A DNA stretch of 64,000 bases from Dehalococcoidia bacterium (GTDB lineage: Bacteria; Chloroflexota; Dehalococcoidia; UBA2979): positions 951,140 through 1,015,139 of the forward strand of contig OZ252046.1 of the NCBI GenBank assembly GCA_965247895.1, in the 5' to 3' direction. Of this stretch, positions 3,001-44,452 are shown piece by piece. The stretch's first letter is position 1; the number at the start of each line of letters is the position of its first letter. The position numbers were made by a program, and so were the translations under genes. Under the pieces are notes generated by a model. It had not been told where the DNA came from. It saw only the letters and a program-made list of their open reading frames with translations, and made no database searches.

Positions 3001-3510
3001 TGTTTAAACGCCGCATGTAATCGTACAGCTCGCGCACCCATGGGTCGTCTGCTTCGTATGCGGCAACAACCCCCGTCTTCAGGAAGTGACCTCGTTGCTC
3101 ACTTTCGGACTGGGTTTTGAACCCAGGCGTACGAAGCTTGACATCGGTACCCAGGGTGACGAGGAGGGCGTAGAGCGTGTCCGCAGTCAGTCCCGTCAAG
3201 TCGAAGGTGACGGAGGTGCCGTTGGTCATCTTGCTCGTCACCAGGTCGGCGCCGTCGGGCTGGGCCCTGTACTTGAGAGCAACCGTCTGCTCCGTCGAGC
3301 CGGGATTGGCGATGGTGACTGTCACGCTCGCCGTCGTTCGTCCGGTCTCGCCGAACTCCACGCCGGTGATGTTCCCGCTTGGCGCAGCCGGCAGGTCGTA
3401 GGCATAGATCTTGACCTTCGCCTCATCGCCCACCCAGAGGGTGTTCCCGCTGGAGGTGACGCCCCACGGCGCCCCATTCTCGCGGGCCAGTTGTATCTCC
3501 GGGGGGGCTG
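1..3510 (-). CDS. C-terminal portion of giant secreted surface protein A: FN3-like modules, HEXXH Zn-metallopeptidase-like region, spondin_N-like domain, cadherin-like modules. The 3' end lies beyond the window start. Same gene as 3322..5499 after a +1 frameshift at the G7 run 3501..3507.
   Basis: Minus-strand frame with codon first bases at positions congruent to 1 mod 3 is open from 3510 to position 1. Hand translation gives ...PEIQLARENGAPWGVTSSGNTLWVGDEAKVKIYAYDL (a propeller blade)...VYLHELGHVYNAGARLMG (HEXXH)...ATYDVEFEGKWYAKVTPDGVPGGAHFSRLAGAVHNAGVSFLASGG...SPDWFVGVSGLPLLNSSGRWLRSHTVNLYPWDAGTEEG (spondin_N-like)...YETVPSHTVTVTATDPGTLSDTIIV (cadherin-like). It is absent from the ORF track because there is no stop codon inside the window. 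Confidence 0.6.
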
Positions 3511-6329: not shown

Positions 6330-6513
6330 CGCCCATGACCGAGCAGGCGGCCGCGCTGACGCCCCGCACACTTGACTTCACTCGCTGCGGCATACGGCCG
6401 GGAGCCAGTCGATCCTGGCCGGCACCGACCTGCTGACGGTTTCGCGGCGGCTCGGGCAAGCGTCCGCGTCGTTCACGATGGATATCTACGGGCACATGTT
6501 GCCGGGGCAATAG
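6330..6513 (+). pseudogene. Degraded C-terminus of a tyrosine recombinase (phage integrase): box II and catalytic Tyr region, disrupted by an indel
   Basis: One frame reads ...LHSLRHTAGSQSILAGTDLLTVSRRLGQASASFTMDIYGHMLPGQ* (HxLRH...Y motif), ending at a stop at 6511..6513. The preceding ALTPRTL segment is in another frame, with a stop between them. Removing a 14-nt stretch would restore ALTPRTLRHTAGS. Confidence 0.5.
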
Positions 6514-6551
6514 GGCCCTGCGGCCGAGGCGCTTGACCACTTGATCAGGTG

Positions 6552-6617
6552 AATGGCCCCAGAATGGCCCCAGATTGGCCCCAGATTGGCCCCAGGATGG
6601 CCCCAGGATGGCCCCAC
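6552..6617. repeat. 11-bp tandem repeat, 6 units (aatggccccag / attggccccag / gatggccccag), between the integrase remnant and the tRNA-Glu 3' end
   Basis: Read directly at 6552..6617. Confidence 0.8.
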
Positions 6618-6664
6618 TCGAGCCGACTGAACGAACGCATGCGGCCGAAAAGGCCTGTGAACGT

Positions 6665-6740
6665 TGGTGCCCCCAAGGGGGTTCGAACCCCTGTTTCCAC
6701 CTTGAAAGGGTGGCGTCCTGGTCCCCTAGACGATGGGGGC
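6665..6740 (-). tRNA. tRNA-Glu (anticodon TTC)
   Basis: Reverse complement of 6665..6740 is GCCCCCATCGTCTAGGGGACCAGGACGCCACCCTTTCAAGGTGGAAACAGGGGTTCGAACCCCCTTGGGGGCACCA. 7-bp acceptor stem, anticodon loop CTTTCAA, T-loop GGTTCGAA, 3' CCA. Confidence 0.9.
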
Positions 6741-15223: not shown

Positions 15224-15297
15224 TGGGGACTCGTCTAATGGTAGGACAGCTGACTCTGGATCAGTAGGTCGGGGTTCGAATCCTCGGTCCCCAGCCA
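15224..15297 (+). tRNA. tRNA-Gln (anticodon CTG)
   Basis: TGGGGAC acceptor stem, anticodon loop CTCTGGA, T-loop GGTTCGAAT, discriminator G, then CCA. 74 nt. Confidence 0.85.
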
Positions 15298-15490
15298 ATA
15301 CGCCGTATACGATTTCGGGGCCGTACTGGACAAGCTGTCCATGAACGCTGTCCGGTACGGAGCGCGGGCGCAGGGGGTAGGAGCCGCCCGGACGAGCTAG
15401 AAGAGCGAGTCTCGTTCAACGAGCAGCCGCGACTGGGGAGGTCGATATGGAGAGCTTGCTTAGCTGCTGCACGACTGAGGTGCTGGCACA

Positions 15491-17122
15491 GTGAGCACAA
15501 TAGACGGCGCTATAGACCTCACTATACCTGGGCTATCTGGAAAGCCTTTGAGCATCACAATACAAACTGGTGAATCCATCTTTGTTATGGGTGCGAATGG
15601 AACAGGTAAATCAACTCTCATACATCACCTCAATAACGAGCACAACGCGCGAGCGCGATTCATACCTGCTAATCGTCAAACATGGATGGAATCTAACTCC
15701 GTTACTATGAACTCGCGCGACAAGGAACAGACAGAACGGAATATAAGACAAGGGACCACCCGTGCTGACGCCCGGTTCCGCGACAACTATTCTGGCGCGC
15801 GAGTCAGCTTGTCCATAGCGGAGCTGCTGGCAGCTGAGGCCGCGCGAGATCACGACATCGCGATTGCGATTGATCGCGGGAAGCCCAAACGTGCGCGGAA
15901 GATATCAAGGAACCGTCCGTCGCACTTGAGAACGATTTCTTCGCTCTTACAGTCATCAGGTCTTCCAATCACAATAAGCGCTCACAATGGTGAGGAACTC
16001 CGAGCCGTCAAGCACGGACAAGAGTATAGTATCGAACAACTATCGGACGGTGAGCGCAATGCCTTTTTACTTGCCGCAACCATCCTCACTACCGAACAAG
16101 GAACGCTTTTCCTGTTGGATGAGCCTGAGAGGCATCTGCATAGGTCCATTTCAGGAAGGCTGATTTCGTCGCTCATTGCGGAGCGAGCCGACTGTTCGTT
16201 TGTAATTGCCACACACGACATTACACTTCCGAGCAAGGAAGAGGATGCCAGAGTCATTCTCTTGACGGCTTGTCAATTCAGCAACGGGCAAGCTATCGGG
16301 TGGGATGCGAAGCTCCTTCCGCAGGGCGAAGCCATAGACGAGGATATCACGAGGGATATATTGAGCTCGCGCAAGAGGATTTTGTTCGTCGAAGGCGTGG
16401 ATGGTAGCCTCGATATTGAGCTCTACCGTATCGCCTTCTCCAGCGAGAACGATATTGACGTCGTGCCCAAGGGTGGGTATCCGGCAGTCGAATCTTCGGT
16501 TAGGGCGATCCGCGGGTCCGAAGCGCTCTATTGGATGGAAGCCTTCGGTATTATCGATCGGGATGGCCGCGCAGACGATGAAGTGTCAGCCTTACGCAAG
16601 ACTGGAGTGTACCCGCTGGAGGTGTACTCCGTGGAATCGATCTACTACCATCCAAAAATCCAGAGGGAGGTAGCGGAACACTTATACGAGAGCCCAGAGG
16701 ACAAGGTTACGGCAGCTCGCGCAGCCGCCATCGAAGAGATAGCCAAGCAAAAGGAAGGCTTGGCCACGCGGGCTCTTGAGAGGATGGTGCGCCGAGCTAT
16801 CCTCGAACGAATCCCTGGACGAGAGGCTATCTCGGCAGAACTGTCTGTCCGAATTGAGATCGACATGACGGACCTACCACAAGATCCGCGTGCAGATCTG
16901 GAGCGAGCGATCGACGACAACGATCTCGAGTACATCATGAAGCACTACCCGATTAAGCCGGGCAACGTCCGGGGAGTGATCGCGCGACAACTCGGGTTCA
17001 CGAACCGGACGGCATACGAGCGGAATGTCCGCAAGGTGCTCCGTCACAGGCCTCAAGCGTTGGAGTTCGTCAGGTCCTTGCTTGGAGGCCTCCCTTCGGA
17101 CCTTACCGCTTCAGGGTCATAG
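15491..17122 (+). CDS. Fused ABC-type ATPase + TOPRIM-type nuclease domain protein (OLD / PARIS-AriAB-like), on a low-GC islet
   Basis: Walker A GANGTGKST, ABC signature LSDGERNAF, Walker B LFLLDEPERHLH, H-loop ATHD. The C-terminal half has TOPRIM-like motifs ILFVEGVDG (conserved Glu) and GIIDRDGR (DxD). GC is about 45% against about 70% for the flanks. GTG start. Confidence 0.8.
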   Translation: MSTIDGAIDLTIPGLSGKPLSITIQTGESIFVMGANGTGKSTLIHHLNNEHNARARFIPANRQTWMESNSVTMNSRDKEQTERNIRQGTTRADARFRDNYSGARVSLSIAELLAAEAARDHDIAIAIDRGKPKRARKISRNRPSHLRTISSLLQSSGLPITISAHNGEELRAVKHGQEYSIEQLSDGERNAFLLAATILTTEQGTLFLLDEPERHLHRSISGRLISSLIAERADCSFVIATHDITLPSKEEDARVILLTACQFSNGQAIGWDAKLLPQGEAIDEDITRDILSSRKRILFVEGVDGSLDIELYRIAFSSENDIDVVPKGGYPAVESSVRAIRGSEALYWMEAFGIIDRDGRADDEVSALRKTGVYPLEVYSVESIYYHPKIQREVAEHLYESPEDKVTAARAAAIEEIAKQKEGLATRALERMVRRAILERIPGREAISAELSVRIEIDMTDLPQDPRADLERAIDDNDLEYIMKHYPIKPGNVRGVIARQLGFTNRTAYERNVRKVLRHRPQALEFVRSLLGGLPSDLTASGS

Positions 17123-28190: not shown

Positions 28191-29012
28191 ATGCCTCGCT
28201 ACCTGATCGTCGCGGACCAGACCGCCACCAGCCTCGAACTCGTCTCGACGGCAACCGAGCTGTCGAAGGAGCACCCGGGCTCGACGTTCGTGCTGCTGCT
28301 GCCGGCGCTGCTGCCCTCGCACGTGCGGGGCGGACCGTTCGACGCCGTCACGCGCGGACGCGCCGAGCAGGCGCGCAGCTTGCTGGAGCGCGCGGGCGTC
28401 ACCGTCGAGCGCACCACCATCGGCGACGCCGCCCCGCTGCTCGCGATCGAGGACGAGCTCGACGAGCACCCCGGGGCCTACGACGAGCTGCTGCTCTGCA
28501 CGCTGCCCGCCAGCATCTCGCGCTGGCTGCGCCTCGACCTGATCGAGCAGGTGGAGCAGCGCTTCGAGCTGCCGATCCGGCACATCGAGGCGCAGTTGCC
28601 GAGCCGCCTCGAGTTCCGCCGCGCCACGCTGCGCGACCACGAGCGCATCCAGGCGCTCTGGGACGAGTCCCGCCTCGAAACCGTCGACGAGGACGAGTGG
28701 GACACGCTGATCACGAGCCCGGGCGCGATCGCGCTCGTCGCCGAGGAGGAAGGTGCGATGGTCGGCGCGATCGTCGCCACGGTCGATGGCTGGCGGGCGT
28801 ACGTCTACCACGTCGCCGTCGTCCCTGCGCGCCGCCGCCGCGGCGTCGCGCAGGCGCTCTTCGTGGAGGCCCACGCGCACCTCGCGCGCGCCGGCAACCG
28901 GATCATCTACGTGATGGTCAACGAGGAGAACGACGCCGGCATGGCGCTGCTGCGCTCGCTCGGCTACCGCACCCAGGGCGACATCGTGATGGTCCACCAG
29001 CTCGAGCCCTGA
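28191..29012 (+). CDS. Two-domain protein: N-terminal USP-like (universal stress protein fold) domain + C-terminal GNAT N-acetyltransferase
   Basis: ATG at 28191 is preceded by aaaggaggg. C-terminal GNAT motif RRRRGVAQALFVEAH. The long track ORF 27009..29012 is an N-terminal artefact. Confidence 0.7.
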   Translation: MPRYLIVADQTATSLELVSTATELSKEHPGSTFVLLLPALLPSHVRGGPFDAVTRGRAEQARSLLERAGVTVERTTIGDAAPLLAIEDELDEHPGAYDELLLCTLPASISRWLRLDLIEQVEQRFELPIRHIEAQLPSRLEFRRATLRDHERIQALWDESRLETVDEDEWDTLITSPGAIALVAEEEGAMVGAIVATVDGWRAYVYHVAVVPARRRRGVAQALFVEAHAHLARAGNRIIYVMVNEENDAGMALLRSLGYRTQGDIVMVHQLEP

Positions 29013-29124
29013 GCCGCCGGGCGCCCGGCCGAGCCCGCACCAACACCTCGGCGCCGCCTACCACACTGCGAACCGTGCGGGCCGCGTATCATGCGGACCG
29101 CGAAGCACCACGGAGGAGTAGCGC

Positions 29125-30240
29125 ATGACCACCGGCCGCATCGTCGTCGTCAAGGAGTACAACGAGCCGTTCACGATCGAGGAGTACGAGGTCCCCGAGC
29201 CGGAGCCGGGCGGCATGATCCTGCGGATGACGCAGGCCGGTGTCTGCGGCTCCGACCTCCACACCTGGCGCGGCGACCAGATCAACGTCCCGCTCCCGCC
29301 CTCCGGCAAGAACATGGGCCACGAGGGCACCGGCGTCGTCTGGAGCCTCGGCGCGGGCCGCACCACGGACTCGCTCGGCCGCCCGCTCGAGGAGGGCGAC
29401 CGCGTGATGTACGCGGCGATCTTCCCCTGCAACAACTGCTACCAGTGCGGCCGCGGCGAGCACAACTGGTGCTCAGACCGCCAGGCCGGCATCGGCGCTC
29501 GCGTCGCCGGCGATTGGCCCTACTTCACCGGCACCTACGCCGACTACTTCTGGATCCCCGCCAACCACCCCGTCTACAAGGTGCCGGACGAGCTGCCCGA
29601 CTCCGTACTCGGCTGGATCAACTGCGCGATGGGCACCGTCACCGAGGGCCTGCTGCGCAGCGGCCTCGGCGAGGGCGACTACCTCGTCATCCAGGGCGCG
29701 GGTGGCCTTGGCCTCAACGCGACCGCGATGGCGAAGGACATGGGCGCGCACCGCGTGATCGTGCTCGACCGCATCCCCGAGCGCCTCGCGCTCGCCGAGG
29801 AGTTCGGCGCGGACCACACGATCAACATCGACGAATACGACAGCCTCGAGGCGCGGCGCGACCGCATCTTCGAGCTCACGGACGGGCGTGGCTCGAACTA
29901 CGTGATGGAGCTGGTCGGGCGCGCGGAGCTGCTGGTCGAGGGCCTCGAGTACCTCACCAACGGCGGCACGTTCATCGAGATCGGCGACATCGTGCGAGGC
30001 CGCACGGTGGCCATCGACCCGTCCACGATCCTGCGCGGCAAGAAGATCATGGGCTCCTCAATGTACCGGCCGCACCTGCTGCCGGTGATGATGGAGATGC
30101 TCGTCAAGAACCTCGACAAGCGGCCGTACACCAAGCTGGTGTCCGACAACTACCCGCTCGCCGAGGTCAACGAAGCGTTCTCCCAGGCAGAGTGGAACGA
30201 GCGCCAGACCCGGATCTCGCGCGCGATGCTCGTGCCCTGA
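29125..30240 (+). CDS. Zn-dependent alcohol dehydrogenase (MDR family)
   Basis: Motifs CGSDLH, GHEGTG and GAGGLG. Confidence 0.85.
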   Translation: MTTGRIVVVKEYNEPFTIEEYEVPEPEPGGMILRMTQAGVCGSDLHTWRGDQINVPLPPSGKNMGHEGTGVVWSLGAGRTTDSLGRPLEEGDRVMYAAIFPCNNCYQCGRGEHNWCSDRQAGIGARVAGDWPYFTGTYADYFWIPANHPVYKVPDELPDSVLGWINCAMGTVTEGLLRSGLGEGDYLVIQGAGGLGLNATAMAKDMGAHRVIVLDRIPERLALAEEFGADHTINIDEYDSLEARRDRIFELTDGRGSNYVMELVGRAELLVEGLEYLTNGGTFIEIGDIVRGRTVAIDPSTILRGKKIMGSSMYRPHLLPVMMEMLVKNLDKRPYTKLVSDNYPLAEVNEAFSQAEWNERQTRISRAMLVP

Positions 30241-30298
30241 TCCCGAGGGGCAACGAGGCTCCGGAACCGCCCGGCGGCGATCGCGTACGCTGGCGGCG

Positions 30299-31183
30299 AT
30301 GGACGTCTACCTCCTCGACGGCACCTACGAGCTGTACCGCCACTTCTACGCGGTGCCCTCGCACCGCGACCGCGAGGGCCGCGAGGCCGGCGCGGTCGTC
30401 GGCGTGCTCGAGTCGGTGCTCCGCCTCTTCGCCGAGGGCGTCACTCACCTCGGCGTGGCGACGGACCACGTGGTCGAGTCCTTCCGCAACGACCTCTGGC
30501 CGGGCTACAAGACCGGCGAGGGCATCGACCCGGCCCTCGCCGGGCAGTTCGCGCCGCTCGAGGACGCGCTCCGGGCGCTCGGCGTGCGCGTCTGGCCAAT
30601 GGTCGACCTCGAGGCTGACGACGCGCTCGCGGCCGCCGCCGTCCGGGCCGCCGAGGACGTCTCCGTGCGCCGCGTCGTGATCGCGACGCCGGACAAGGAC
30701 CTGGCGCAGTGCGTCGGCGGCAAGATCGTCCAGCTCGACCGCCGCAAGCGCGAGACTCGCGACGCCGCGGCCGTCGAGGAGCGCTTCGGCGTGCCCCCGC
30801 CCGCGATCCCGGACTACCTCGCGCTCGTCGGCGACAGCGCGGACGGCTTCCCCGGCCTGCCGGGCTGGGGCGCGAAGTCGAGCGCCGTCGTGCTCGCCCG
30901 CTACGGCCACATCGAGGCAATCCCAACCCACGCCGACCTATGGGACATCAAGGTACGCGGCGCGCAGAAGCTGGCCGCCACGCTGGCCGAGCAGCGCGAC
31001 CTCGCCTTCCTCTTCCGCGACCTCGCCACGCTGCGCACCGATGCCGAAGTTTTCGCCTCCGTCGAGGAGCTGCGCTGGGCGGGCCCCACGCCCGACTTCG
31101 CGGCGATGGCCGAGCAACTCCGCACGCCGGCACTGCTCACCCGCGCCGAGGCCGTCGCCGCCCGCGCAGGCGCGAGCGCGTAG
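30299..31183 (+). CDS. Stand-alone 5'-3' exonuclease (FEN/Pol I N-terminal domain family)
   Basis: Motifs VATDHVVESFRNDLWPGYK and DLEADDALA, with an H3TH region. Confidence 0.85.
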   Translation: MDVYLLDGTYELYRHFYAVPSHRDREGREAGAVVGVLESVLRLFAEGVTHLGVATDHVVESFRNDLWPGYKTGEGIDPALAGQFAPLEDALRALGVRVWPMVDLEADDALAAAAVRAAEDVSVRRVVIATPDKDLAQCVGGKIVQLDRRKRETRDAAAVEERFGVPPPAIPDYLALVGDSADGFPGLPGWGAKSSAVVLARYGHIEAIPTHADLWDIKVRGAQKLAATLAEQRDLAFLFRDLATLRTDAEVFASVEELRWAGPTPDFAAMAEQLRTPALLTRAEAVAARAGASA

Positions 31184-31192
31184 AATGTAGCC

Positions 31193-32494
31193 ATGATTCG
31201 GCGCATCGCGATTCAAGGCTACAAGTCACTGCAGGATGTCAACCTGCGCTTGGATCCGCTGACCATCGTCATCGGGCCGAACGCCGCCGGCAAAAGCAAT
31301 CTCCTCGACGCGATCGGCCTGCTCAGCCGCACGGTAGAAGGCGACCTTCAATCCGCGTTCATGGAACACCGTGGCGAGCCTCTGCGCTCGTTCACGTTGG
31401 ATGAGACAGGCATCGAAGGCCTCATGACGCGCGCGAGTGCATCGTTCCGCCTGGACGTTGACGTCGAGCTGTCGAAGGCCACGGTGAATCAGGTGAACCG
31501 GACCATTAACGAGGCGCGCGAGGGCTACGAGCCCTCGCGCGCCCTCGTCCGCGAGACGCTCCTGCGCTACTCACTGGACATGCAGATCCGAACCGACTCA
31601 GGAGTCCTGCAAGTGATCGACGAGTCGCTGCACGCGCTGAATGTGGACCTAGGTGAGAAGCAGTCGCGTCGTCCGTTCCTATCAGCCGAGAACAAGTCCG
31701 GCGGCGTGAAGCGGCTTTCGCTGCGCCTCGAGCGCCAGAGCCACCCCTTCGAGCACGACCTCGGGATGGATCGAACTGTCGTGTCGCTCCCGCACTACGC
31801 GCCGCATCACCCCCACCTGGTGGCGCTCCGTCATGAACTAGCCTCGTGGCGAACCTACTATCTCGAGCCCGAGGCCATGCGCCAAGACTCTTCGCTGCGG
31901 GAGGTTAGGCGCTTACCTCACGATGGATCAGACCTCGCGGCGTTCTACAACACCATGGAGAAGGAGCACTCGCGCGTGTTCGACGCGATGAACCGCGCCC
32001 TGCGCGGCGTGCTGCCGGGGATCGAACGTGTCGGCGTTTCGACCACGGAGTCAGGGCGCCTCCGCCTCTATGTCATCGAACGGGGAGTACGTTTCGAGGC
32101 GAGCGCACTCTCGGAGGGCACGCTCCGTATCCTGGCCCTGATCGGCATCACCAACTCTCCGGAGCCCGCAGCAGTCATTGGCTACGAAGAGCCGGAGAAT
32201 GGTGTACACCCTGCCCGCCTCTCGTGGATCGCCTCGTTGTTCGAGGAAGCGTCTCGTGACGACACAACCCAGTTCATAATCAACACCCATTCGGCACAGT
32301 TTCCCGCGATGTTCTCTGGAGACGAGTCGCTCACCCTTCGTTGCTACAAGGAGAACGGTGTCACGAATTTCGAGGAAATCGACCGCGCACTCCCGTTGCT
32401 TGAGGACCTCGAGATCTCGGCCGCCCTCGACGAGAATCAGCCAACGCCGGTTTCGCCGCTCTCTGCGCGCATCGAGCGGGGCGACTTCCTCTAG
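31193..32494 (+). CDS. AAA_21/AAA_15-type ABC ATPase (OLD / AriA / GajA / RloA-like), first gene of a two-gene cassette
   Basis: Walker A GPNAAGKSN (residues ~28-36). After a ~250-aa insertion: signature-like LSEGTLRILAL, Walker B/D-loop VIGYEEPENGVHP, H-loop NTHS. Lower GC (~58-60%). Confidence 0.8.
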   Translation: MIRRIAIQGYKSLQDVNLRLDPLTIVIGPNAAGKSNLLDAIGLLSRTVEGDLQSAFMEHRGEPLRSFTLDETGIEGLMTRASASFRLDVDVELSKATVNQVNRTINEAREGYEPSRALVRETLLRYSLDMQIRTDSGVLQVIDESLHALNVDLGEKQSRRPFLSAENKSGGVKRLSLRLERQSHPFEHDLGMDRTVVSLPHYAPHHPHLVALRHELASWRTYYLEPEAMRQDSSLREVRRLPHDGSDLAAFYNTMEKEHSRVFDAMNRALRGVLPGIERVGVSTTESGRLRLYVIERGVRFEASALSEGTLRILALIGITNSPEPAAVIGYEEPENGVHPARLSWIASLFEEASRDDTTQFIINTHSAQFPAMFSGDESLTLRCYKENGVTNFEEIDRALPLLEDLEISAALDENQPTPVSPLSARIERGDFL

Positions 32495-33088
32495 GTGCGA
32501 GTTCTGTACGTCCTTGAAGACAACGCGCATGCGCAGTTCGTCCCACCACTCTTTCGGAGGATTGCGCGAGACGAAGTTGTAGATCTCGCCGAGCAGGAAC
32601 TAACACCGATGCGAGGCGACGGCCGTACGATTAGCGGCCTGCGGAGACTGCTCGCCGACATCAGGACTGGCAGCCCCACGCGGCCCGATCTGATCGTCGT
32701 TGGCATTGACGCGGACTGCAGCTCGCGAGGTGAGCGCGATCGGCAGGTCCACCGCGCATGCGAACTCGAAGGTTACGAGGGCGACGTCATCGTCGCCGAG
32801 CCGGACCCGCACATCGAGATTTGGTACCTCGCCGATCCTGTGCTCCTGCAGCAGTTACTCCAAACGCCAAGTCTCTCTGCTATACCGGACATTCGTTGCA
32901 AGAAGGACGAGTTCAAGAAGGAACTGCGCTCAATCGCGCTGTCGAGCGGGGCGCCCGCACCCCTAGGCGGAGTAGAGTACGGGCCGGAGATCGCGGAAGG
33001 CATGAACCTTTACCGGGCCGGCCGCAGTGTCGCGTCGCTCGGCCGGTTCGTCGACGCGGCGCGCGCACGCCTTCAAGCGCACGTGTAG
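32495..33088 (+). CDS. Small (197 aa) TOPRIM-like protein (E...DxD). Partner of the upstream ATPase.
   Basis: GTG start directly after the ATPase TAG stop. Conserved Glu in LYVLEDN (E8) and IVVGIDADCSS (D72, D74), spaced like a TOPRIM core. No other recognisable domain. Confidence 0.6.
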   Translation: MRVLYVLEDNAHAQFVPPLFRRIARDEVVDLAEQELTPMRGDGRTISGLRRLLADIRTGSPTRPDLIVVGIDADCSSRGERDRQVHRACELEGYEGDVIVAEPDPHIEIWYLADPVLLQQLLQTPSLSAIPDIRCKKDEFKKELRSIALSSGAPAPLGGVEYGPEIAEGMNLYRAGRSVASLGRFVDAARARLQAHV

Positions 33089-33108
33089 GGGCAGGCAGCG
33101 GAGGCGAG

Positions 33109-33912
33109 ATGCAGGACTTCGAGGGCAAAGTCGCCGTCATCACCGGCGGGGCGAGCGGGATCGGCTTCGGCATGGCCGAGCGCTTCGCCGCCGCGGGCAT
33201 GACGGTCGTCCTCGCCGACATCAACGAGGACGCCCTGCCGGAGGCCGAGTCGCGCCTCGCCGAGCGCGGCGCGAGCGCCCTCGGCGTGCCGGTCGACGTC
33301 GCCGATCCCGATCAGGTCGAGGAACTCGCGCGGCGCGTGCTGGACGAGTTCGGCGCGGTCCACGTGCTCTGCAACAACGCCGGGGTCAACTCCTCCGACG
33401 AGCCGATCTGGGAGGTCTCGCGGCAGGACTGGGAGCGCGTGATCGACATCAACCTGCGCGGGGTGATCCACGGCATCCGCGCCTTCCTGCCGCACATGCT
33501 CGCGCAGGACTCCGAGGGCTGCATCGTCAACACCGCCTCGGCGGCGGGCCTCGGGTCACGGCCGGGCATCTCGCCCTACGTGGCGACGAAGCACGCCGTG
33601 ATCGCGCTCAGCGAGTCGCTGCATCACGACCTCGTCGCGGAGGGGTCGAAGCTGCGCGCCGCGGTGCTCTGTCCGGGCCGCATCCGCACGCCGATGATGG
33701 CGGAACACCTGGAGCGCGAGGGCAAGGATGTCGAGGAGGCCGCGGCCGGCTACCTGCTCCCGAGCGAGGTCGGCGAGCTGGTCTTCCAGGCGATCCGGGA
33801 CGAGCGCTTCTACATCCTCACCCACCCCGAGGGCGAGAGGGATCGCGTCAGGGGGGCCGCAGACGATATCCTGCTCGGGCGCGACCCGACGCATTCGTCG
33901 CCGATCTACTAG
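33109..33912 (+). CDS. SDR-family oxidoreductase
   Basis: Motifs TGGASGIG, NNAG and YVATKHA. ATG preceded by ggagg. Confidence 0.85.
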   Translation: MQDFEGKVAVITGGASGIGFGMAERFAAAGMTVVLADINEDALPEAESRLAERGASALGVPVDVADPDQVEELARRVLDEFGAVHVLCNNAGVNSSDEPIWEVSRQDWERVIDINLRGVIHGIRAFLPHMLAQDSEGCIVNTASAAGLGSRPGISPYVATKHAVIALSESLHHDLVAEGSKLRAAVLCPGRIRTPMMAEHLEREGKDVEEAAAGYLLPSEVGELVFQAIRDERFYILTHPEGERDRVRGAADDILLGRDPTHSSPIY

Positions 33913-33945
33913 CCAGCCAGCGCGTCAGCCACGTCAGGAGCCCGT

Positions 33946-34374
33946 ATGACCAGCGAAGCACTCCTCCAGCCGCAGCCCGAGGGCATCCCGCTCCCGACTC
34001 CCTCCACGATCTCCGAGCCGCACTGGGAGGGCTGCAAGCGCGGTGAGTTGATGGTGCAGCACTGCCAGGACTGCGACGGCTACGTCTTCATCCCGCAGCC
34101 GGCCTGCACGCACTGCCAGAGCGAGAACCTGGAGTGGGTGCAGAGCAGCGGCAAGGGCACCGTCTACAGCTGGACCATGGTCTACCGCCCGCAACAGCCG
34201 AGCTTCGATACCCCATACGCCTCGGCGATCATCGAGGTCGAAGAGGGCTGGTACATGCTGACGAATCTGGTGGACGTCGCCGTCGAGGACGTGCGCATCG
34301 GCCTCCCCGTTGAGGTCGTCTTCCACGCCATCAACGACGAGACCACGCTCCCCTACTTCCGCCCCGCGGGGTAG
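33946..34374 (+). CDS. Zn-ribbon OB-fold protein (DUF35 family, thiolase/SCP-x accessory type)
   Basis: CxxC...CxxC (CQDCDG...CTHCQS) plus an OB-fold region. Confidence 0.75.
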   Translation: MTSEALLQPQPEGIPLPTPSTISEPHWEGCKRGELMVQHCQDCDGYVFIPQPACTHCQSENLEWVQSSGKGTVYSWTMVYRPQQPSFDTPYASAIIEVEEGWYMLTNLVDVAVEDVRIGLPVEVVFHAINDETTLPYFRPAG

Positions 34375-34404
34375 CGCCCCGGGGCCGTCCGCGCCCGCCC
34401 TCGC

Positions 34405-35262
34405 CTACGTCTCCGAGAACGCCGAGCCGCGGCGTTCGACGCCGCCGCCCGTGGCGTGGTCGATCACGCCGCACTCGACGAGGAAGGGCTGGCTGTGGAC
34501 CACGCGCCCGGACACACGCTCGGCGGGCTCGGAGACGAGCCACAGCGCCGCATGCGCCATGTGCTCGACCGGCTCCGTGACCGCCGCATCGAGGTTCGCA
34601 CCCGGCCCCAACTCGCTCGCCGTCGCACCCGGCGTCGGCACCAGGTTCGAGGGCGAGAGCGCGCTGACGGCGATGCGGTGCGGCCACAGCTCCGCGGCCA
34701 GCCCCTGCGTGAAGCGCTCCAGCGCCGCCTTCGAGGCGCCGTACATCGTCCCCGCATCGACGCGCTCCTGCTCGGCGTAGGGCCCGCGCCCGGGACCGCC
34801 CGAGGAGCTGGAGGAGATATTGCAGATCGCCCCCCGCCCGCGCTCGATCATCCCCGGCAGGACGAGCTGCGAGAGGTAGAACGGCGCGTGGATGTTGACA
34901 TCGAAGCCCAGCTTCCAGCGTCGCAGCGGGAACTCCGTGAGCGGGTGGTAGGTGGTCATCGCGGCGTTGTTGACGAGCACGTCGACGCGCCCGAAGGCGT
35001 CCACGGTCTGCTCGACGATCGCCTCGCAGCCTTCCTCGCTGCCGACGTTCGCCTGCACGGCGATTGCGGTTCCGCCCGCCTGCTCGATCGCCTCGATCGT
35101 GCCGCGCAGCGAGCCCTCGAGGCGGTGATCGCCCTCTTCCAGCGTGCGCGCGACGCAGGCTACCTGCGCGCCCTCGGCGGCGAACAGCTCGGCGATCGCC
35201 TTGCCGATGCCGCGGCTGGTCCCCGTCACGATCGCGACCCGATCGTCGAGCCGGCCCATCAT
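34405..35262 (-). CDS. SDR-family oxidoreductase
   Basis: Motifs TGTSRGIG, NNAA and YGASKAA. Start MMGRLDD inside track ORF 34405..35343. Confidence 0.8.
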   Translation of the reverse strand: MMGRLDDRVAIVTGTSRGIGKAIAELFAAEGAQVACVARTLEEGDHRLEGSLRGTIEAIEQAGGTAIAVQANVGSEEGCEAIVEQTVDAFGRVDVLVNNAAMTTYHPLTEFPLRRWKLGFDVNIHAPFYLSQLVLPGMIERGRGAICNISSSSSGGPGRGPYAEQERVDAGTMYGASKAALERFTQGLAAELWPHRIAVSALSPSNLVPTPGATASELGPGANLDAAVTEPVEHMAHAALWLVSEPAERVSGRVVHSQPFLVECGVIDHATGGGVERRGSAFSET

Positions 35263-35655: not shown

Positions 35656-37826
35656 TCAGGAGCCTCCCGTGCCCGCACTCGGGAGCTCGGGCGCCTTGAG
35701 CGCGCACTCCTCGCGCAACCAGGACGTGACGCCATCGGCCGACACCAGGAGCCAGCCCACGCAGCGCCCAACTCCCTGACCGAGTACCTCGACCTCCGTG
35801 CCGTCCAGCCAGCCGCCGACGAGTCGTGCACCATCGGCGCAGTCGATACGGTGCGCGACACCCCTGCCGCCCGTATTCCCGATGATCCTCAGAGCCTCCG
35901 GCCCCACTGCCGCAGGCGCCGCGAATTCGACCAGATACGTCCCCCGCACCCACGAGCTGGCGCCGTCCGCCTGGACCCACAGCCAGCCCACGCAGCGCCC
36001 AACCCCGTGCGCGAGCGCCTCGACCTGCGTGTCGTCCAGCCAGCCGCCGCCGTCCGAGCGTCGCGCATCATCGGCACAGTCGTCGCGCTGCGAGACGCCG
36101 TCGCCGCCGGTATTCCCAATCAGCCACCAGATCGTCGGGGCCAGCGCGGGAACACCGCCCGAGTCGACGACCTGCTCGGCGCGCGCCCACGAGCTGACGG
36201 CGTCCGCCCGCACCCAGAGCCAGCCCGTGCAGCGCCCAACCCCCTGAGCGAGAATCTCGACCTCCGTGCCGTCCGGCCAGACGCCGCCGTCCGAGCCTCG
36301 CGCATCCTCGGCACAGTCGCTGCGGTGCGAGACGCCCTCGCCGCCCGTGTTGCCGATCAGCCTGCGTGGCCCCGGATCCGGCGGCTCGACCGGCTCCGCT
36401 GTCTCGACCGGCTCCGCCGGCTCGTCCGGCTCCAGCGTCCCGTCCGGCTCCGCTGTCTCGACCGGCTCCGCTGTCTCGACCGGCTCCGCTGTCTCGACCG
36501 GCTCCGCTGGCTCGTCGGGCTCCGCTGGCTCGCCGGGCTCCGCTGGCTCGTCGGGCTCCGCTGGCTCGTCGGGCTCCGCTGTCTCGACCGGCTCCGCTGT
36601 CTCGACCGGCTCCGCTGTCTCGACCGGCTCCGCTGTCGCCACCGGCTCCGCTGTCTCGACCGGCTCCGCTGTCTCGACCGGCTCCGCTGTCTCGACCGGC
36701 TCCGCTGTCTCGACCGGCTCCGCCGTCTCGACCGGCTCCGCTGCATCTTCGCGGCCTGGAGGGTGCATGATTCGCACTCGGTAGACACGCGAGCGATGAC
36801 CATCTTCGGAGGTGACGGTGACCGTGATCTCCGCGATCTCCTCCAGCGCCAGCTGATGCCCGTTCTCCGGATTCCCATCTGCGTCATCGGGAGCGATCAC
36901 CACGGTCGCTCCCGGCCGCATGGCGCGTGCATCAATGACTACGCGGCCGGTCGCGACCCCTTCGTAGCCGGTGCGGCTGCTTGTGAAGTCGCCAATCTGG
37001 ACGCCGACCAGTCTCAGCAGGGCGAGGCGGGTGTCCGCGCTCGCGCGCAGCTCGGTGGTGAAGTAGACGCGGTCGTCGGCGAGGTCGCCGACGTAGATCA
37101 GGCCTCCATCGGACCAGAGACCTCGCGTCTCTCCGTTCTCGTTGCGGACCCTGAACTCCTCGTCACGGACGCGCACGAGGTCGTCTCCCTGCAACTGATA
37201 CGCGAACAACCTCGCGCTGCCCCTCTCGGAGACCAGGATCACGTACCCATCCGACCAGAGCCCGTGCGGGTCGTTGTTGGCCGGATCGAGCGAGTAGACG
37301 CCGAGCGTTTCCCCGGTCGCAGGTCGTAGCTGAAGAGACTGTCCGTGCCGCCATCCAGCACCCACATCGTGTCGCCGTCGGACCAGATGCCTCGGGCGTG
37401 GGCGTTGCGTTCGTCGAGCCTGATGTCCCGCTCCGGAAGCGGCGTCCTGGTCTCCATGTCGTAGGCGAAGACCCGGTCCTGCCCGCTGTCGGAGACCCAG
37501 GCCGTCTCGCCGTCGGACCACAGGCCGCGCGGGGCCACGTTGCGCCTGGCGAGCTTGAAGTCGAGCTCCTCGAGGCGCTCGCGGCTCTCGATGTCGTAGG
37601 CAAAGACGCCGTCGTCGGCCCCGACTCCGTTCCAGGCTACCCACAGCGTCTCGCCGTCGGACCAGAGTCCCGTCGTGACGCCGCAGCCGGGTTGAGGAGG
37701 GTCAAGACTGCAGGTGGCTCCCGAGGCTGCCGGAACCGCGCCACCCAGATGCGCGAACAGGAGAACCAGAGCAACTATTGCCGAGCTGGCCGCAAGCCGG
37801 GCATACGTCCTCGCCTCGACCGCCAT
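35656..37826 (-). CDS. Giant secreted surface protein B: signal peptide, WSDG beta-propeller blades, 18-bp-unit acidic tandem repeat (PVETAE)n, three C-terminal SH3b-like Cys-containing domains. A single-base frameshift near 37305..37325 splits it into track ORFs 37239..37826 and 35656..37644.
   Basis: N-terminus MAVEARTYARLAASSAIVALVLLFAHLGG. Blades GLWSDGETLWVAWNG...FAYDI and GIWSDGDTMWVLDGGTDSLFSYDL. At the junction one frame reads ...DSLFSYDLRPGKR and the other ...RPATGETLGVYSLDPANNDPHGLWSDG. C-terminal repeats IGNTGG[DE]GVS[HQ]R.DC..DAR.S.GG.W.DGTEVE.L..GVGRC.GWL.V.ADG..SW.R. Confidence 0.65.
36376..36750. repeat. About 20 tandem copies of an 18-bp unit (gtctcgaccggctccgct and variants) encoding (PVETAE)n/(PDEPAE)n inside gene B
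   Basis: Read directly. Coding low-complexity repeat, not CRISPR (units are contiguous, no spacers). Confidence 0.8.
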
Positions 37827-41000: not shown

Positions 41001-44000
41001 GCCGCTCTCCAGGTCGTAGGCGAAGAGCCGCTCCTGGCCGCTGTCCGAGACCCACATCGTCTCGCCGTCGGACCAGACGCCGCGGGGGGCGCGGTTGTCT
41101 TCGGCGAGCTCGAACTCGAGGTCCTCAAGGCGGTCGCCGCTCCAGCGGTCGTAGGCGAAGACGCCGTCGTTGGCGCCGTCGCCGTTCTGGCCCACCCACA
41201 GCACCTCGCCGCGGCCCCAGAGACCCGTCGGATCGTCGTTGGCGGGATCGAGGTCGATGTCACCCGTCACGTGCCACTCGAAGTCCTCGTCGCTCGGGGT
41301 GGGGCCGATGGGGGTAAAGGGGATGAAGGGGATGGTGCCGCCACCGGTGTTGGTGTTCCCGCCGGTGTTCCCGGGGTTGTCCCAGTTGTGCTCGATGACG
41401 TCGGTGACGGTGATCGTCACCGTGATCTCGGCGGTCGCGAGGGACGGATCCGTCGCCGTGACAATCACGGTGTAGCTCGACTTCTCCTCGTAGTCGAGGA
41501 AGGTCGAGGTCCGCAACTGGCCGGACAGCGGGACGATAGCGAAGGAGTCTCCGTCCGTACCGCTGAGGCTGTAGGTCAGCACCTTGCCTTCGGGATCGGT
41601 GGCGATGACCGGGAGCCCGATGTTCACGTTCGGGGCCGTCTCCTCCGGCACGCTGCGCTGTCCCGTTTCGCTCGAGGGGAAGGTGGGGGCGTTGTTGCTG
41701 GTCGGCTCGGCGAGGACCGCGTTCAGTGTCCGCTGGACCTGGTCGGCACCGGTCACCGCGTCGGTGTAGTCGGCGGTGACGCGGATGACGTCGCCGACAT
41801 CGTCCGCGACCGGCGCGTACGAGGACGATGAGGTATTCGGCGTGGTCTGATGCGTCAGGGTCGTCCAGGTGACCTGGTCCGGGGACTTCTCCCAGGTCCA
41901 TGTCGTGACGGACACGCCGCCGTCGGGGTCGTCCACGGTTGCGAGCAGCGCCGTGCCCACCTGCGGTTGCTCCGAGGAGAAGAGGAGCTGGCCGTCGTCC
42001 TCGGCGTTGGTGATCGTGACGGTGATCTGCTCGATCGTCATGCTCTCGCGGTCACCGCTCCCGCTCATCGCCATGACCGTCACGCGATAGACGTTACTGT
42101 CGTCGACGCTGCGGGGATCCTCGTAGTCCGCGCCGTGCGCCGCCCTGAAGGACAGCACTCCGGCACTGGTGATCGCGAACATCCGCCCGTCGTCCTCGGG
42201 AACTGCAGCCTTGAGGATGAAGGTAACGCTGTCCTGGGTATCGGGATCCTCGGCCACCACCGTCCCGACGGCCTGCGTGTTCTCCGCGACGGTGAGTCCG
42301 GGCGTGCTGAACGTCGGGCTGTTGTTGGTGATGTTCTTGACGGGGAGATCGGTCAGCGTCCCCGCAGGAGTTCCGTCGTCGTCCTGCAGCGGGCTCGTCT
42401 GCGGTGGCTGGTAGCTCACGGTGACCGGCTCGCCACCGACGACCGCCGACGCCAGGGTCAGCGTCACCGTCATCCCGCTGACCGACACGGTGTTCACCGC
42501 GCGTGGCACGGTGTCCACCTTCACCGTGTACGCCGGCTCCGAGGCCTCATCGAGCGCCTTGTTGTAGGTGAGCGTCAGCGTTTCGCCGTCCACCACTGCC
42601 GAGTCATTGGTCGAGACAAGCGACGGGGCACGTCGGTGTTGTTCGTGATGGGAACGTCCGTGAGCGGCGCCGCGTCTTCCCCGTCCAGGTCTTGCAGGGG
42701 ATCCGTCGAGGGCGGCACGTCGTAACTCAGACGCACGGTCTGGCCAGCCAACACGGGCGTGGAGAGCATCAGCGTTACGGTCACCTCGCTGATCTCGACG
42801 TCGCTGACCGTGTGCGTCGTGCTGTCGGCGGTCACCGTGTACGTGGTCGTCGCCGGCTCCGAGTCCGGGTCGAGGGCCTCGCTGTACATCAGCGTCAGCG
42901 TGTCGCCGTTGACGACGCCGCTCAGGTGCACGTAGACGGGCGGGTCCGGCTGGGTGCTGTTCGTGACGGGGTGGTCCCTGAGCGCCACCGCGTCGGCGCC
43001 TTCGGAGTCCTGCACCGGGCTCTCGTCCGGCGTGTAGCTCACGAGGGCGATGTCGCTCGCCACCACGGCCGGGTCGAGCGTGAGCTTCACGGTGCTCCCG
43101 CTGACCACCACGGCGGTCACCACGTGGTCACTCGTCGAGTCGTTGACCGTGACGGTGTAGTCCTCCGGGTCCGGCTGCGAGCCGGTGTCGAGCGCCTCGC
43201 TGTAGGTCAGTGTGAGCGTGTCGCCGTCGACGGTCGCGTCGGAGATCGACGGCGGCGCGTTGGTGTTGGTGCTCGACCCGCAGACGGTGAGGCCGTAGAA
43301 CTCGAAGTTGTCGGGGTCGACCATGAACCGAAGGTCGGTGGTCTCGACATCGAGCAAGAGCGGCGGCACGCAGCCTGTCCATGCGTTGGCGCCAAGATTC
43401 AGCCTTCGCAGTCCGGGCAGCAGTTTCTCGAGTTCCGATGGGATCGATCCCGTGAGCAGATTGTCACGCAAGTCCACGTCCGTGAGCGGCAAGCTGCCAA
43501 GTCCCGGTGGGAGAGTCCCCGTGAACCCGTTCCCATAAAGCGTCAAGGATCCCAGCTCAGAAAGTTCGGTGATCTCTGTCGGTATGGGCCCGGAGAATCT
43601 GTTCCCATGCAGGCTCAACGTCATCAGCTTGGTGAGGTTCTTGATCTCGGCCGGGATCGTTCCCGTGAGGCCGAGTCCACCGTGGATGTTCTTGTTGCCG
43701 TGGAGACGCAGCGTGCGCAGCTCCGTGAGGTCCCATATCTCCGACGGTATGTCGCCGTCGAGGTTGTTTCCCCCTAGATCCAGGTGCTGCAACGTCTCTT
43801 TGAGCTTCCCCAGCTCCGACGGGATCCCGGGTTCGTAGTACAGATTCCGGGGGTCGTCGTAGTTGAGTGGACTGCTGAACCTGTTGTAACTGAGATTGAG
43901 CGTTACCAGATTCGGAAGGTCCCCGAGTTCCGGAGGGATCGGACCGGACAGCTGGTTCTGCTTCAGGTTTATCGTGACCAAACCCGTGAGCACCCCGATG

Positions 44001-44452
44001 GCTGCCGGCATCCTCCCGTTTAGCCGGGGCGGCGTCGTAGGAGTGCCACCGCCCGAATCCAGAATTATCGAAGTCACCCGCCTGGGCGAGCCCCCGGCGG
44101 TGATCCCCTCCCACGTCGATATTTCCTTGCTGGCGCTCCAGTCGAGCCGTCGCCGGACGTTGCTGGTGCCCTCGAGCGTCTCCTTCAACCCCGCCAGGAC
44201 CCTGCAATCAGCGACAAGCTCGGCGTTGTCCGCGGCATCCTCGACAATGACGCCGTCGTCGCAAGCTTCCGGATCCACCGGTGTCGCCGGCACATCCACT
44301 GCCAGGGCCGTCTGCTGCACGGCCAACATGGCGACCGCGACCGCGACGACGAGGAGCCAGCGGCTCACGAGGCGCCTCGCAGTGTGCTGTTGCCCGCGAG
44401 TGCGGGGACGCGGGCGTGGACCTGCTCCGCGTCGCGAGGGTCTGCGGCGCAC
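38007..44452 (-). CDS. Giant (~2150 aa) secreted surface protein C. N to C: signal peptide; plant-type LRR N-cap + ~8 LRRs; >=5 Ig-like 'GDTLTLTYSEALD' beta-sandwich repeats; cadherin-like modules; WSDG beta-propeller; (VVEPPIEEPP)n; 3x ~95-aa Cys-containing domain; (TPAPTA)n; (DETPAA)n; 4x SH3b-like domains. A frameshift near 42618..42628 splits it into track ORFs 42575..44452 and 38007..42596.
   Basis: LRRs: LTGLVTINLKQNQLSGPIPPELGD, LTKLMTLSLHGNRFSGPIPTEITE. N-cap CDDGVIV...ADCRVLAGLKETL...W.GIT. Junction: the 625-aa frame ends ...PITNNTDVPRRLSRPMTRQWWTAKR*. The -1 frame reads ...SLVSTNDSAVVDGETLTLTYNKALDE, matching the intact repeat junctions. Propeller blades GVWSDGETMWVSDSGQERLFAYDL and others. 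Confidence 0.65.
38505..38700. repeat. About 11 tandem copies of an 18-bp unit (cagccggggtctcatccg) encoding (DETPAA)n in gene C
   Basis: Read directly. Confidence 0.8.
39405..40160. repeat. Three near-identical ~240-bp tandem copies encoding a ~95-aa Cys-pair domain (AEPEGECLIGLTEGRFDLTIY.GGSLAELRDCMREFELMAVWDDP.GEWVPLLIGGTELVNRPFVALFPDGVP), flanked by (TPAPTA)n at 39196..39396 and a 30-bp x3.5 repeat at 40187..40300
   Basis: Read directly from the translation of the 38007..42596 ORF and the underlying DNA. Confidence 0.75.

Follow-up and report, generated by a model that had tools for sequence, protein, structure and literature searches.

The DNA analyzed here, a stretch of 64,000 nucleotides from a Dehalococcoidia bacterium (assembly GCA_965247895.1, contig OZ252046.1, positions 951,140 to 1,015,139; here referred to as the window), carries a compact cassette of two genes at positions 31184-33108. 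By comparison of its sequences the cassette is a further member of the catalogued candidate anti-phage type HEC-01 and not a new system. We consider it probable, at roughly 65%, that it is a functional two-gene HEC-01-type module, consisting of an OLD/SMC-like ABC ATPase and a DUF4276 protein with a Toprim fold, which acts by the defence mechanism proposed below. The defence function itself is suggested by family membership and context.

HEC-01 (Hma-embedded candidate 01; PADLOC-DB v2) combines an ABC ATPase with a TOPRIM protein and was discovered within Hma systems (Payne et al. 2024, bioRxiv 10.1101/2024.01.29.577857). The original prediction, made from the nucleotide sequence of the window, had regarded the pair as a possibly undescribed variant. 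This is not supported, since the ABC ATPase and TOPRIM candidate was described in 2024 and the pair of ATPase and DUF4276/TOPRIM protein corresponds to it. The two open reading frames (ORFs) lie exactly where they had been placed, and gene 2 starts with GTG on the base following the TAG stop of gene 1.

The cassette consists of the following elements:

31184..31192, + strand: left junction, AAT (common to the empty site) and GTAGCC in front of the gene 1 ATG, with no room for a separate promoter
31193..32494, + strand: gene 1, 433-amino-acid (aa) ABC ATPase of the HEC-01A type (AAA_21/AAA_15), ATG start, intact ORF
31274..31297, + strand: Walker A / P-loop, G28-PNAAGK34-S35; G28, N30, G33, K34, S35 and N36 invariant in 40 homologues
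32111..32128, + strand: ABC signature-like motif, S307-EGTLR312; S307, G309, T310, L311 and R312 invariant in 40 homologues
32174..32212, + strand: Walker B / D-loop, V328-IGYEEPENGVHP340, OLD-type 'EEPE' form; E332, E333, P334, E335, N336 and G337 invariant
32282..32293, + strand: H-loop, N364-THS367; H366 invariant, N364, T365 and S367 at least 90% conserved
32477..32497, + strand: junction of the two genes, R-G-D-F-L codons (purine-rich CGGGGCGAC, Shine-Dalgarno-like), TAG and, on the next base and in the same frame, the GTG of gene 2
32495..33088, + strand: gene 2, 197-aa DUF4276 / HEC-01B protein, Toprim-like alpha/beta fold with a C-terminal helical region, predicted metal-dependent nuclease, GTG start
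32516..32521, + strand: E8-D9 at the C-terminal end of strand 1 (residues 2-7), Toprim glutamate position; invariant in 30/30 and 53/53 homologues
32708..32719, + strand: D72-A-D74-C75 just past strand 3 (residues 66-70), Toprim DxD position; D72 in 53/53, C75 in 46/53
32801..32836, + strand: P103-x-P105-H-x-E108-x-W110-Y-x-x-D114 after strand 4, extra invariant acidic residues; P103, P105, E108, W110 and D114 in 53/53
32915..32917, + strand: K141, invariant Lys (53/53) in helix 139-151, candidate catalytic or phosphate-binding residue
33089..33108, + strand: right junction, GGGCAGGCAGC followed by the preserved host ribosome-binding site GGAGGCGAG of the SDR gene

The ABC ATPase gene

The best match of gene 1 across all libraries was the PADLOC HEC-01A model PDLC04184 (E = 4.8e-61, 205 bits), in a nearly full-length alignment (residues 1-367 against model positions 1-387 of 464). 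Six more HEC-01A models scored below 1e-30, followed by PDC-M07A, AriA (5e-27) and mad3. The Pfam matches to AAA_21 (1.6e-25) and AAA_15 (1.9e-19), and also to SMC_N, bear out the predicted ATPase type. More than 1,200 close relatives of gene 1 were found.

All motifs that had been predicted (GPNAAGKS, SEGTLR, EEPENGVHP and THS) are present and, as specified in the list, invariant in the 40 aligned homologues, of which the most distant is 45% identical. The head of the protein is SMC/Rad50/RecF-like. Between Walker A and the signature motif lie inserts of mixed strands and helices of ~270 residues, in line with the insertion of ~250 aa noted before, and this region matches Insert 1 and Insert 2 of the HEC ATPases (bioRxiv 10.1101/2024.01.29.577857).

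Thermus OLD (6p74) was the best PDB sequence match of gene 1 (1.1e-08) with its 'IEEPE..LHP' aligned, and P2 Old matched gene 1 at an hhalign probability of 89%, its related 'IDEPE..LHP' aligning with the Walker B. By its motifs (AAA_15/AAA_21 with an 'EEPE..HP' Walker B) gene 1 is an OLD-type ATPase. Structural comparison with defence ATPases gave values of 19.7 for the retron Ec83 ATPase, 19.4 for PtuA, 16.6 for AriA, 16.1 for the retron Eco8 OLD, 14.6 for Ts OLD and 13.7 for GajA.

At its C-terminus the ATPase carries a tail of 30-35 residues with predicted disorder (pLDDT, the per-residue model confidence, 45-55), which nevertheless closes with an invariant R-G(-D-F) motif. Inside gene 1, at 31513-31543, lies an inverted repeat of two perfect 14-bp arms (GGCGCGCGAGGGCT / AGCCCTCGCGCGCC) separated by 3 nt. 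It falls into the hypervariable insert region (codons ~107-117), which is missing in the distant L090 homologue.

The DUF4276 gene

Gene 2 appears to belong to a divergent subfamily of the DUF4276 / HEC-01B proteins. We found 47 relatives, 30 of which were aligned. DUF4276 was matched by 28 of these 30 (E <= 0.01, best 1.1e-09) and HEC-01B models by 22 (E <= 0.01, best 9.7e-11; homologues at 56-72% identity), while mad4 was matched by a single homologue (5.3e-06). The counts for DUF4276 and HEC-01B settle the family of gene 2, and we infer the membership of the window protein by transitivity: it holds at the family level and is sub-threshold for the window sequence itself. The earlier guess of a DUF4276- or RloB-like protein was therefore right in its first half. 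RloB (PF13707) was matched by one of the 30 homologues (E = 0.0044) and not by the window protein, and AbiL / RloAB was rejected. In the profile hidden Markov model (HMM) searches AAA_21 and AAA_15 were recovered; for gene 2 there was no DUF4435, RloB or Toprim_OLD match, and DUF4276 was sub-threshold when the protein was searched alone.

An exhaustive search with the profile of the gene 2 family returned 1022 representative clusters at E <= 1e-3 and 271 at E <= 1e-30 (clusters at 50% identity). Nearly all of these are standalone proteins of 190-215 aa, so that ~200 aa is the normal size and the partner is not unusually small, as had been assumed. Neither PHROGs nor, beyond chance matches, PDB sequences (family profile HMMs A1 and A5) were hit.

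Conservation was assessed in the 30 close homologues and in 53 diverse representatives at 24-56% identity. The predicted TOPRIM-like E…DxD pattern stood in part. E8 and D72 are invariant in both sets; position 74 is mostly Asn, and the family motif is thus Dx[N/D](C) rather than a strict DxD. The impression that nothing else was recognisable in gene 2 has to be revised, as the complete invariant set in the 53 representatives comprises E8, D9, D72, P103, P105, E108, W110, D114 and K141.

In the AlphaFold2 model of gene 2 (pLDDT 92.6) strands 2-7, 32-35, 66-70 and 97-101 alternate with helices, and the C-terminal half is helical. The model places E8/D9 after strand 1 and D72 after strand 3. These are Toprim positions, and a Toprim-like fold is supported by the prediction. 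DUF4276 (Mad4 of MADS) and RloB were both assigned to the Toprim superfamily, with conserved E and DxD, in the Menshen analysis (PMC12065111).

In public annotations close homologues (P0001, P0005 and P0039) are called from Met39 with 159 aa, by which the catalytic E8/D9 are lost (window 32495-32608). In every locus the full 197-aa frame is conserved, beginning with the base that follows the stop of the ATPase. Such short calls together with sub-threshold HMM scores would hide the pair from automatic defence-system finders. Since the gene 2 of the window is divergent (E = 0.019), an automatic PADLOC run would probably miss it.

Coupling of the two genes

An AAA_15/21 ATPase of 415-434 aa is located directly upstream of gene 2 on the same strand in all 14 loci retrieved, which represent 8 distinct contexts, and the adjacency holds down to 35% gene 2 identity. 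The window pair shows the adjacency and common strand that define HEC-01.

In 10 loci the stop codon (TAG or TAA) is immediately followed by ATG or GTG, and in 4 more distant loci the genes overlap by 8 nt. The stop is genuine, as indicated by its variation (TAG; TAA in L086). Throughout the close subfamily a purine-rich stretch, encoded by the conserved C-terminal R-G-D codons, lies 10-16 nt upstream of the gene 2 start. Judged from this layout, the arrangement is that of classic translational coupling. The R-G(-D-F) tail of the ATPase may have a double function, docking the partner protein and, through its codons (CGGGGCGAC, AGAGGGGAT and similar), providing gene 2 with a ribosome-binding site.

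Purifying selection acts on both genes, the ratios of non-synonymous to synonymous substitution rates (dN/dS) being 0.15 and 0.19. Together with the 1022 representative clusters of gene 2 these values put the described features far beyond chance.

Insertion site, composition and strain variation

The cassette is flanked by a 5'-3' exonuclease gene (5_3_exonuc_N/C, stop at 31183) and an SDR gene (adh_short, start at 33109). Genome scans with this exonuclease assigned the window to a high-GC MAG lineage of Dehalococcoidia/Chloroflexota. In the closest genome (L001), whose flanking proteins are 95-99% identical, the order is ADH, exonuclease, SDR and OB-fold gene without the cassette. Its empty site reads TAG-AAT-cgccccgcagcgggcc-GGAGGCGAG-ATG, that is the exonuclease stop, 16 bp and the SDR ribosome-binding site. 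The window has ~1.9 kb in place of these 16 bp, with the SDR ribosome-binding site kept. The empty site thus demonstrates that the cassette fills the gap between both genes exactly, as had been proposed from the window.

The cassette occupies the same site in four further assemblies (L081, L091, L092 and L093), and the left junction common to all of them points to a single ancestral insertion. In L002-L005, whose exonuclease is 72-76% identical, the exonuclease gene leads directly to an OB-fold (ChsH2-like) gene, and both the cassette and the SDR gene (33109..33912) are lacking. The site downstream of the exonuclease therefore varies over longer evolutionary times as well.

Gene 1 and gene 2 have a GC content of 62.2% and 63.1%, compared to 66-74% in the four neighbouring genes and a window mean of 69.4%. 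The cassette had correctly been placed below its flanks, but at 58-60%, a range into which only one 400-bp segment falls (58.5%). Its third codon positions are not unbiased, as had been stated, but less biased than in the host, the third-position GC (GC3) being 0.78 and 0.72 where the flanking genes reach 0.93-0.96. The cassette was compared with its flanks in 7 hosts and was 5-12 points lower in GC in every one.

The alleles of the cassette are mosaic: in some blocks the synonymous divergence (dS) is far higher than in the flanks (0.6-1.0 against 0.15-0.22, with maxima of 1.0-1.4), and in another block it is 0. Compared with L081, the flanks of the window are 90-99% identical, gene 1 and the 5' half of gene 2 are 67-83% identical, and the 3' part of gene 2 is 92-95% identical. 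The corresponding dS values are 1.0 for gene 1, 1.16 for codons 1-100 and 0.29 for codons 100-197 of gene 2, and 0.15-0.22 for the flanks, where a GC3 near 95% may depress dS somewhat. Compared with L092, the divergence is concentrated in two insert patches of the ATPase (codons 40-115 and 205-265, dS 0.56-0.94); codons 265-433 of gene 1 show no synonymous difference, gene 2 is 99% identical and the flanks differ by 3-5%. Positive selection on the hypervariable patches was rejected because dS is high (0.56-0.94) and dN/dS low (0.05-0.22). This combination fits imported alleles and recombinational exchange under purifying selection. The locus as a whole is an accessory one that varies between strains, and recombination exchanges its alleles.

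The proposal of a horizontally acquired accessory cassette is supported by these data: the site is empty in a close relative, GC is lower and the alleles are mosaic. The comparison of synteny that had been suggested as a check agrees, with the cassette present in some relatives, absent from L001 and L002-L005, and not host-like in GC. We found no direct or inverted repeats at the cassette borders, no integrase or transposase within +/-5 kb and no adjoining tRNA, the nearest one being a tRNA-Asn 2.3 kb downstream. The cassette is probably transcribed together with the exonuclease operon.

Several variants were observed among the homologous loci. In L091, ~720 bp are added between the ADH and exonuclease genes (2930-3675), with a 210-aa ORF lacking a Pfam or PADLOC match, and gene 2 contains a ~326-bp partial duplication (6341-6667) resulting in a 246-aa product (P0024); the assembly is a long-read one, and either segment could be an artefact. 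In another host, L082 (6693-8000), the partner ATPase is split into ORFs of 142 and 244 aa, which reflects either a pseudogene or an error of long reads at low coverage (6x). A DUF4276 protein identical to that of L082 (P0003) is encoded on the short-read contig L083, where it adjoins an intact 433-aa ATPase. The 3.48-Mb genome of L081, which has the divergent allele, carries an Eco57I-type methyltransferase fragment and three transposase genes (two DDE_Tnp_1_4 ORFs and one IS110) upstream of ADH (1-3324), where the window has MFS and GNAT genes.

Proposed mechanism and alternative explanations

As an HEC-01-type defence module the cassette would work as follows. The ATPase would dimerise on ATP by its Walker A, signature and Walker B sites and would bind the nuclease, possibly by the conserved C-terminal tail. 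The variable insert domains, i.e. the recombining patches, may respond to a sign of infection (a phage protein or an aberrant nucleic acid), upon which ATP binding or hydrolysis would license or release the nuclease. With its acidic metal site (E8/D9, D72, E108 and D114, plus K141) the latter could cut invading DNA, as OLD and Gabija do, or host tRNA/RNA, as PARIS AriB and probably WonB do. Phage replication would thereby be blocked, probably at the expense of the infected cell.

A number of points weigh against this explanation. We infer the substrate, the trigger and the complex alike. The HEC-01 representative tested in E. coli gave no protection from any phage tried (bioRxiv 10.1101/2024.01.29.577857). 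Searched alone, gene 2 reached 15.5 bits (E = 0.021) with DUF4276 PF14103, where the gathering threshold is 30.2, despite an alignment that extends over profile positions 2-189 of 192, and 12.9 bits (E = 0.019) with HEC-01B PDLC04196. The canonical second Asp of the Toprim motif is usually replaced, position 74 being Asn in 39 and Asp in 14 of the 53 diverse homologues. Foldseek found no match of the gene 2 model in the PDB at E <= 1e-3. Probabilities from hhalign were 0.15-0.23% for the gene 2 profiles A1/A5 against P2 Old and 0.2% against the AriAB-like DUF4435 protein encoded elsewhere in the window; as both templates are single sequences, this is a weak test of a link between DUF4276 and the Toprim domains of OLD and AriB. 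Scans of viral contigs, phage genomes and plasmids found no relatives of gene 2. A promoter and terminator scan of 29000-34500 returned no candidate site, so that the cassette lacks a promoter of its own, and its neighbours (MFS, GNAT, ADH, exonuclease, SDR, OB-fold and SDR genes) form a metabolic setting and not a defence island.

Four other explanations were considered, all of them less well supported than a defence module of the HEC-01 type. The cassette could be a selfish addiction module similar to toxin-antitoxin (TA) systems, in which the ATPase restrains a nuclease toxin and which persists by post-segregational killing or recombination with no net anti-phage benefit. The Pfam name of AAA_21 ('putative AbiEii toxin, Type IV TA system'), the compact, tightly coupled layout without a promoter, the failed HEC-01 phage test and TA genes near some homologues (PIN/FitA in L087, HipA in L090) point in this direction. 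However, the clean 16-bp site in a close relative speaks against obligate addiction, another HEC-01 did protect, and for WonAB, a comparable pair, a simple sequestration TA model was excluded experimentally (PMC12137116). TA function and abortive-infection defence are, moreover, not mutually exclusive. Overall we regard pure addiction as unlikely. Still less can be said for decaying or non-functional acquired DNA, which we hold to be extremely improbable: the damaged strain variants, namely the split ATPase in L082 and the ~326-bp duplication in L091 gene 2, could be errors of the low-coverage long-read assemblies in which they occur, whereas both ORFs of the window are intact with all catalytic residues present and dN/dS is 0.15-0.19.

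RecF works with the Toprim protein RecR, and by analogy the cassette might be an accessory module for DNA repair or recombination, with a RecF/SMC-like ATPase and a Toprim partner cooperating with the adjacent, probably co-transcribed 5'-3' exonuclease. This seems very unlikely to us, as the exonuclease neighbour is limited to one clade, other homologues adjoin unrelated genes, and neither a near-identical relative nor L002-L005 possess the cassette. Core repair genes would not typically show low GC and a mosaic exchange of alleles, and the top matches are models of defence systems. RecF itself was rejected, the model TIGR00611 reaching 36.3 bits against a cutoff of 172 over the N-terminal 47 residues only. 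To a similarly small degree we would credit the idea that the pair is an orphaned part of a larger system linked to methylation (MADS Mad3/Mad4, Hma-embedded or Menshen-like) and needs a methyltransferase or helicase encoded elsewhere. The mad3 models match gene 1 (5e-20 in PADLOC, 4.5e-41 in NCBIfam), and Mad4, to which one gene 2 homologue is matched, is a DUF4276 protein. The L087 homologue sits in an Hma-type island with SNF2 helicase, PIN/FitA, DUF1156, DUF499 and HEPN genes, and N6_N4 methyltransferase genes occur within a few kb in L082, L084 and L085. Against this, NCBIfam MAD3 scored 141 bits with a cutoff of 420, the +/-6 kb around the pair contain no methyltransferase, helicase or other mad gene in the window, in L081 or in L092, and in at least 5 distinct contexts the pair is found by itself in a metabolic neighbourhood, still under purifying selection.

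Within the preferred explanation, that of an HEC-01 defence module, a more far-reaching version can be formulated, which we put forward as speculative and rather doubtful. Split ATPase and DUF4276 pairs might constitute a fifth mechanistic class of OLD-like systems, with a ~200-aa RNA/tRNA nuclease (Dx[N/D], E8/D9, E108, D114 and K141) that would be held and released by the ATPase as in PARIS. Its specificity would be re-programmed by shuffling the insert domains (codons 40-115 and 205-265), and the in-frame junction with a single stop would make fused and split forms interconvertible via one codon.

Further features of the window

A second low-GC island, more pronounced than the cassette, holds an ORF at 15491..17122 (+ strand, 543 aa), directly downstream of tRNA-Gln (15224-15297) and between the genes for a Glu/Gln-tRNA synthetase and an MFS transporter. 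Its GC content (0.54) and GC3 (0.59) are low compared to the host (~0.70 and 0.93; island 15224-17122). The encoded protein consists of an ABC ATPase fused to DUF4435 and matches PADLOC AriAB PDLC02982 nearly full length (2.4e-52); by this match it is a fused PARIS-like AriAB gene. An exact-sequence look-up of the protein gave no match. Together with the HEC-01 cassette the window thus contains two independent compact insertions of ATPase and Toprim type, ~14 kb apart.

Two probably surface or adhesin-like proteins are encoded downstream of the cassette on the - strand. One (35656-37644, 662 aa) has a long tandem array of ETAEPV-type hexapeptides and a weak Cadherin-like match. The other (42575-44452, 625 aa) carries leucine-rich repeats (LRR) and SWM_repeat and adjoins a 1529-aa ORF.

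Significance of the locus

Pairs of the HEC-01/DUF4276 type are widespread, as reflected by the ~1,000 clusters of gene 2 at 50% identity and the more than 1,200 close relatives of gene 1. We know of no biochemical characterisation of any member, and phage tests of HEC-01, of which two are published, gave opposite results. The locus leaves the catalogue unchanged. It offers a natural series in which the same site is empty, filled, or filled with mosaic alleles, as well as a list of invariant residues for studies of DUF4276 effectors (E8, D9, D72, E108, D114 and K141 in gene 2; K34, E333 and H366 in gene 1). It also illustrates two pitfalls of annotation, gene 2 being shortened to 159 aa in public calls and its sequence falling below automatic HMM thresholds. 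New in our study are the empty site in a close relative, the mosaic alleles of the cassette, the low GC in 7/7 hosts and the Asn at position 74.

Comparison with known systems

In the OLD nucleases (P2 Old, Ts OLD, Bp OLD, classes 1-2; Gabija GajA) both domains are fused, whereas the window has two ORFs split by a TAG. Membership of OLD classes 1-2 was rejected on account of the two ORFs, the missing Toprim_OLD Pfam match and the lack of profile similarity in the Toprim part. The term split OLD-like, used in the original prediction, therefore describes the architecture of the cassette only; membership of the OLD Toprim family was not borne out at the sequence level. Gabija was rejected as well, there being no GajB-type helicase partner.

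PARIS consists of the ABC ATPase AriA and the DUF4435 Toprim nuclease AriB (PMC11464382). Gene 2 has no DUF4435 match at E <= 1 and is ~100 aa shorter than the 35-kDa AriB. While PARIS is often borne by phages or satellites (PMC11464382), the subfamily of the window was not found on viral contigs, phages or plasmids. PARIS membership was rejected, as gene 2 lacks DUF4435 and AriA models match gene 1 only secondarily. The AAA15/21 tree of the same study does include ATPases partnered with DUF4276.

Mad3 and Mad4 of MADS (Maestri et al. 2024, as cited in PMC12065111) would, going by that citation, belong to the same two families, an AAA_15/21-type ATPase and DUF4276. As presented there, MADS is a multi-gene methylation-associated system, whereas the window has no methyltransferase or other mad genes. 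With these neighbours lacking and the MAD3 score below its cutoff, membership was rejected. The MANTIS paper, which was checked for the mechanism of MADS, has no bearing on DUF4276.

WonAB of the Vibrio cholerae WASA-1 prophage is a two-gene operon of an OLD-type ABC ATPase and a small separate nuclease (PMC12137116). The ATPase activity is needed to activate the nuclease, which binds to the C-terminal extensions of the ATPase dimer, and infection is aborted through translation inhibition (PMC12137116). We regard it as a functional analogue of the split design. WonB has a PD-(D/E)xK fold and not Toprim/DUF4276, and WonAB is prophage-borne.

The closest system is HEC-01. Its TOPRIM protein has a metal site in common with Bp OLD (bioRxiv 10.1101/2024.01.29.577857), and in a cold-seep study one HEC-01 protected E. 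coli B from at least one of T4, T5 and T7. The window pair differs in that it lies outside an Hma system, alone between the exonuclease and SDR genes, and in that its subfamily has D at position 74, where N is typical of the family. The order of the two genes is the same in both, with the ATPase (HEC-01A) followed by the TOPRIM/DUF4276 protein of ~200 aa (HEC-01B).

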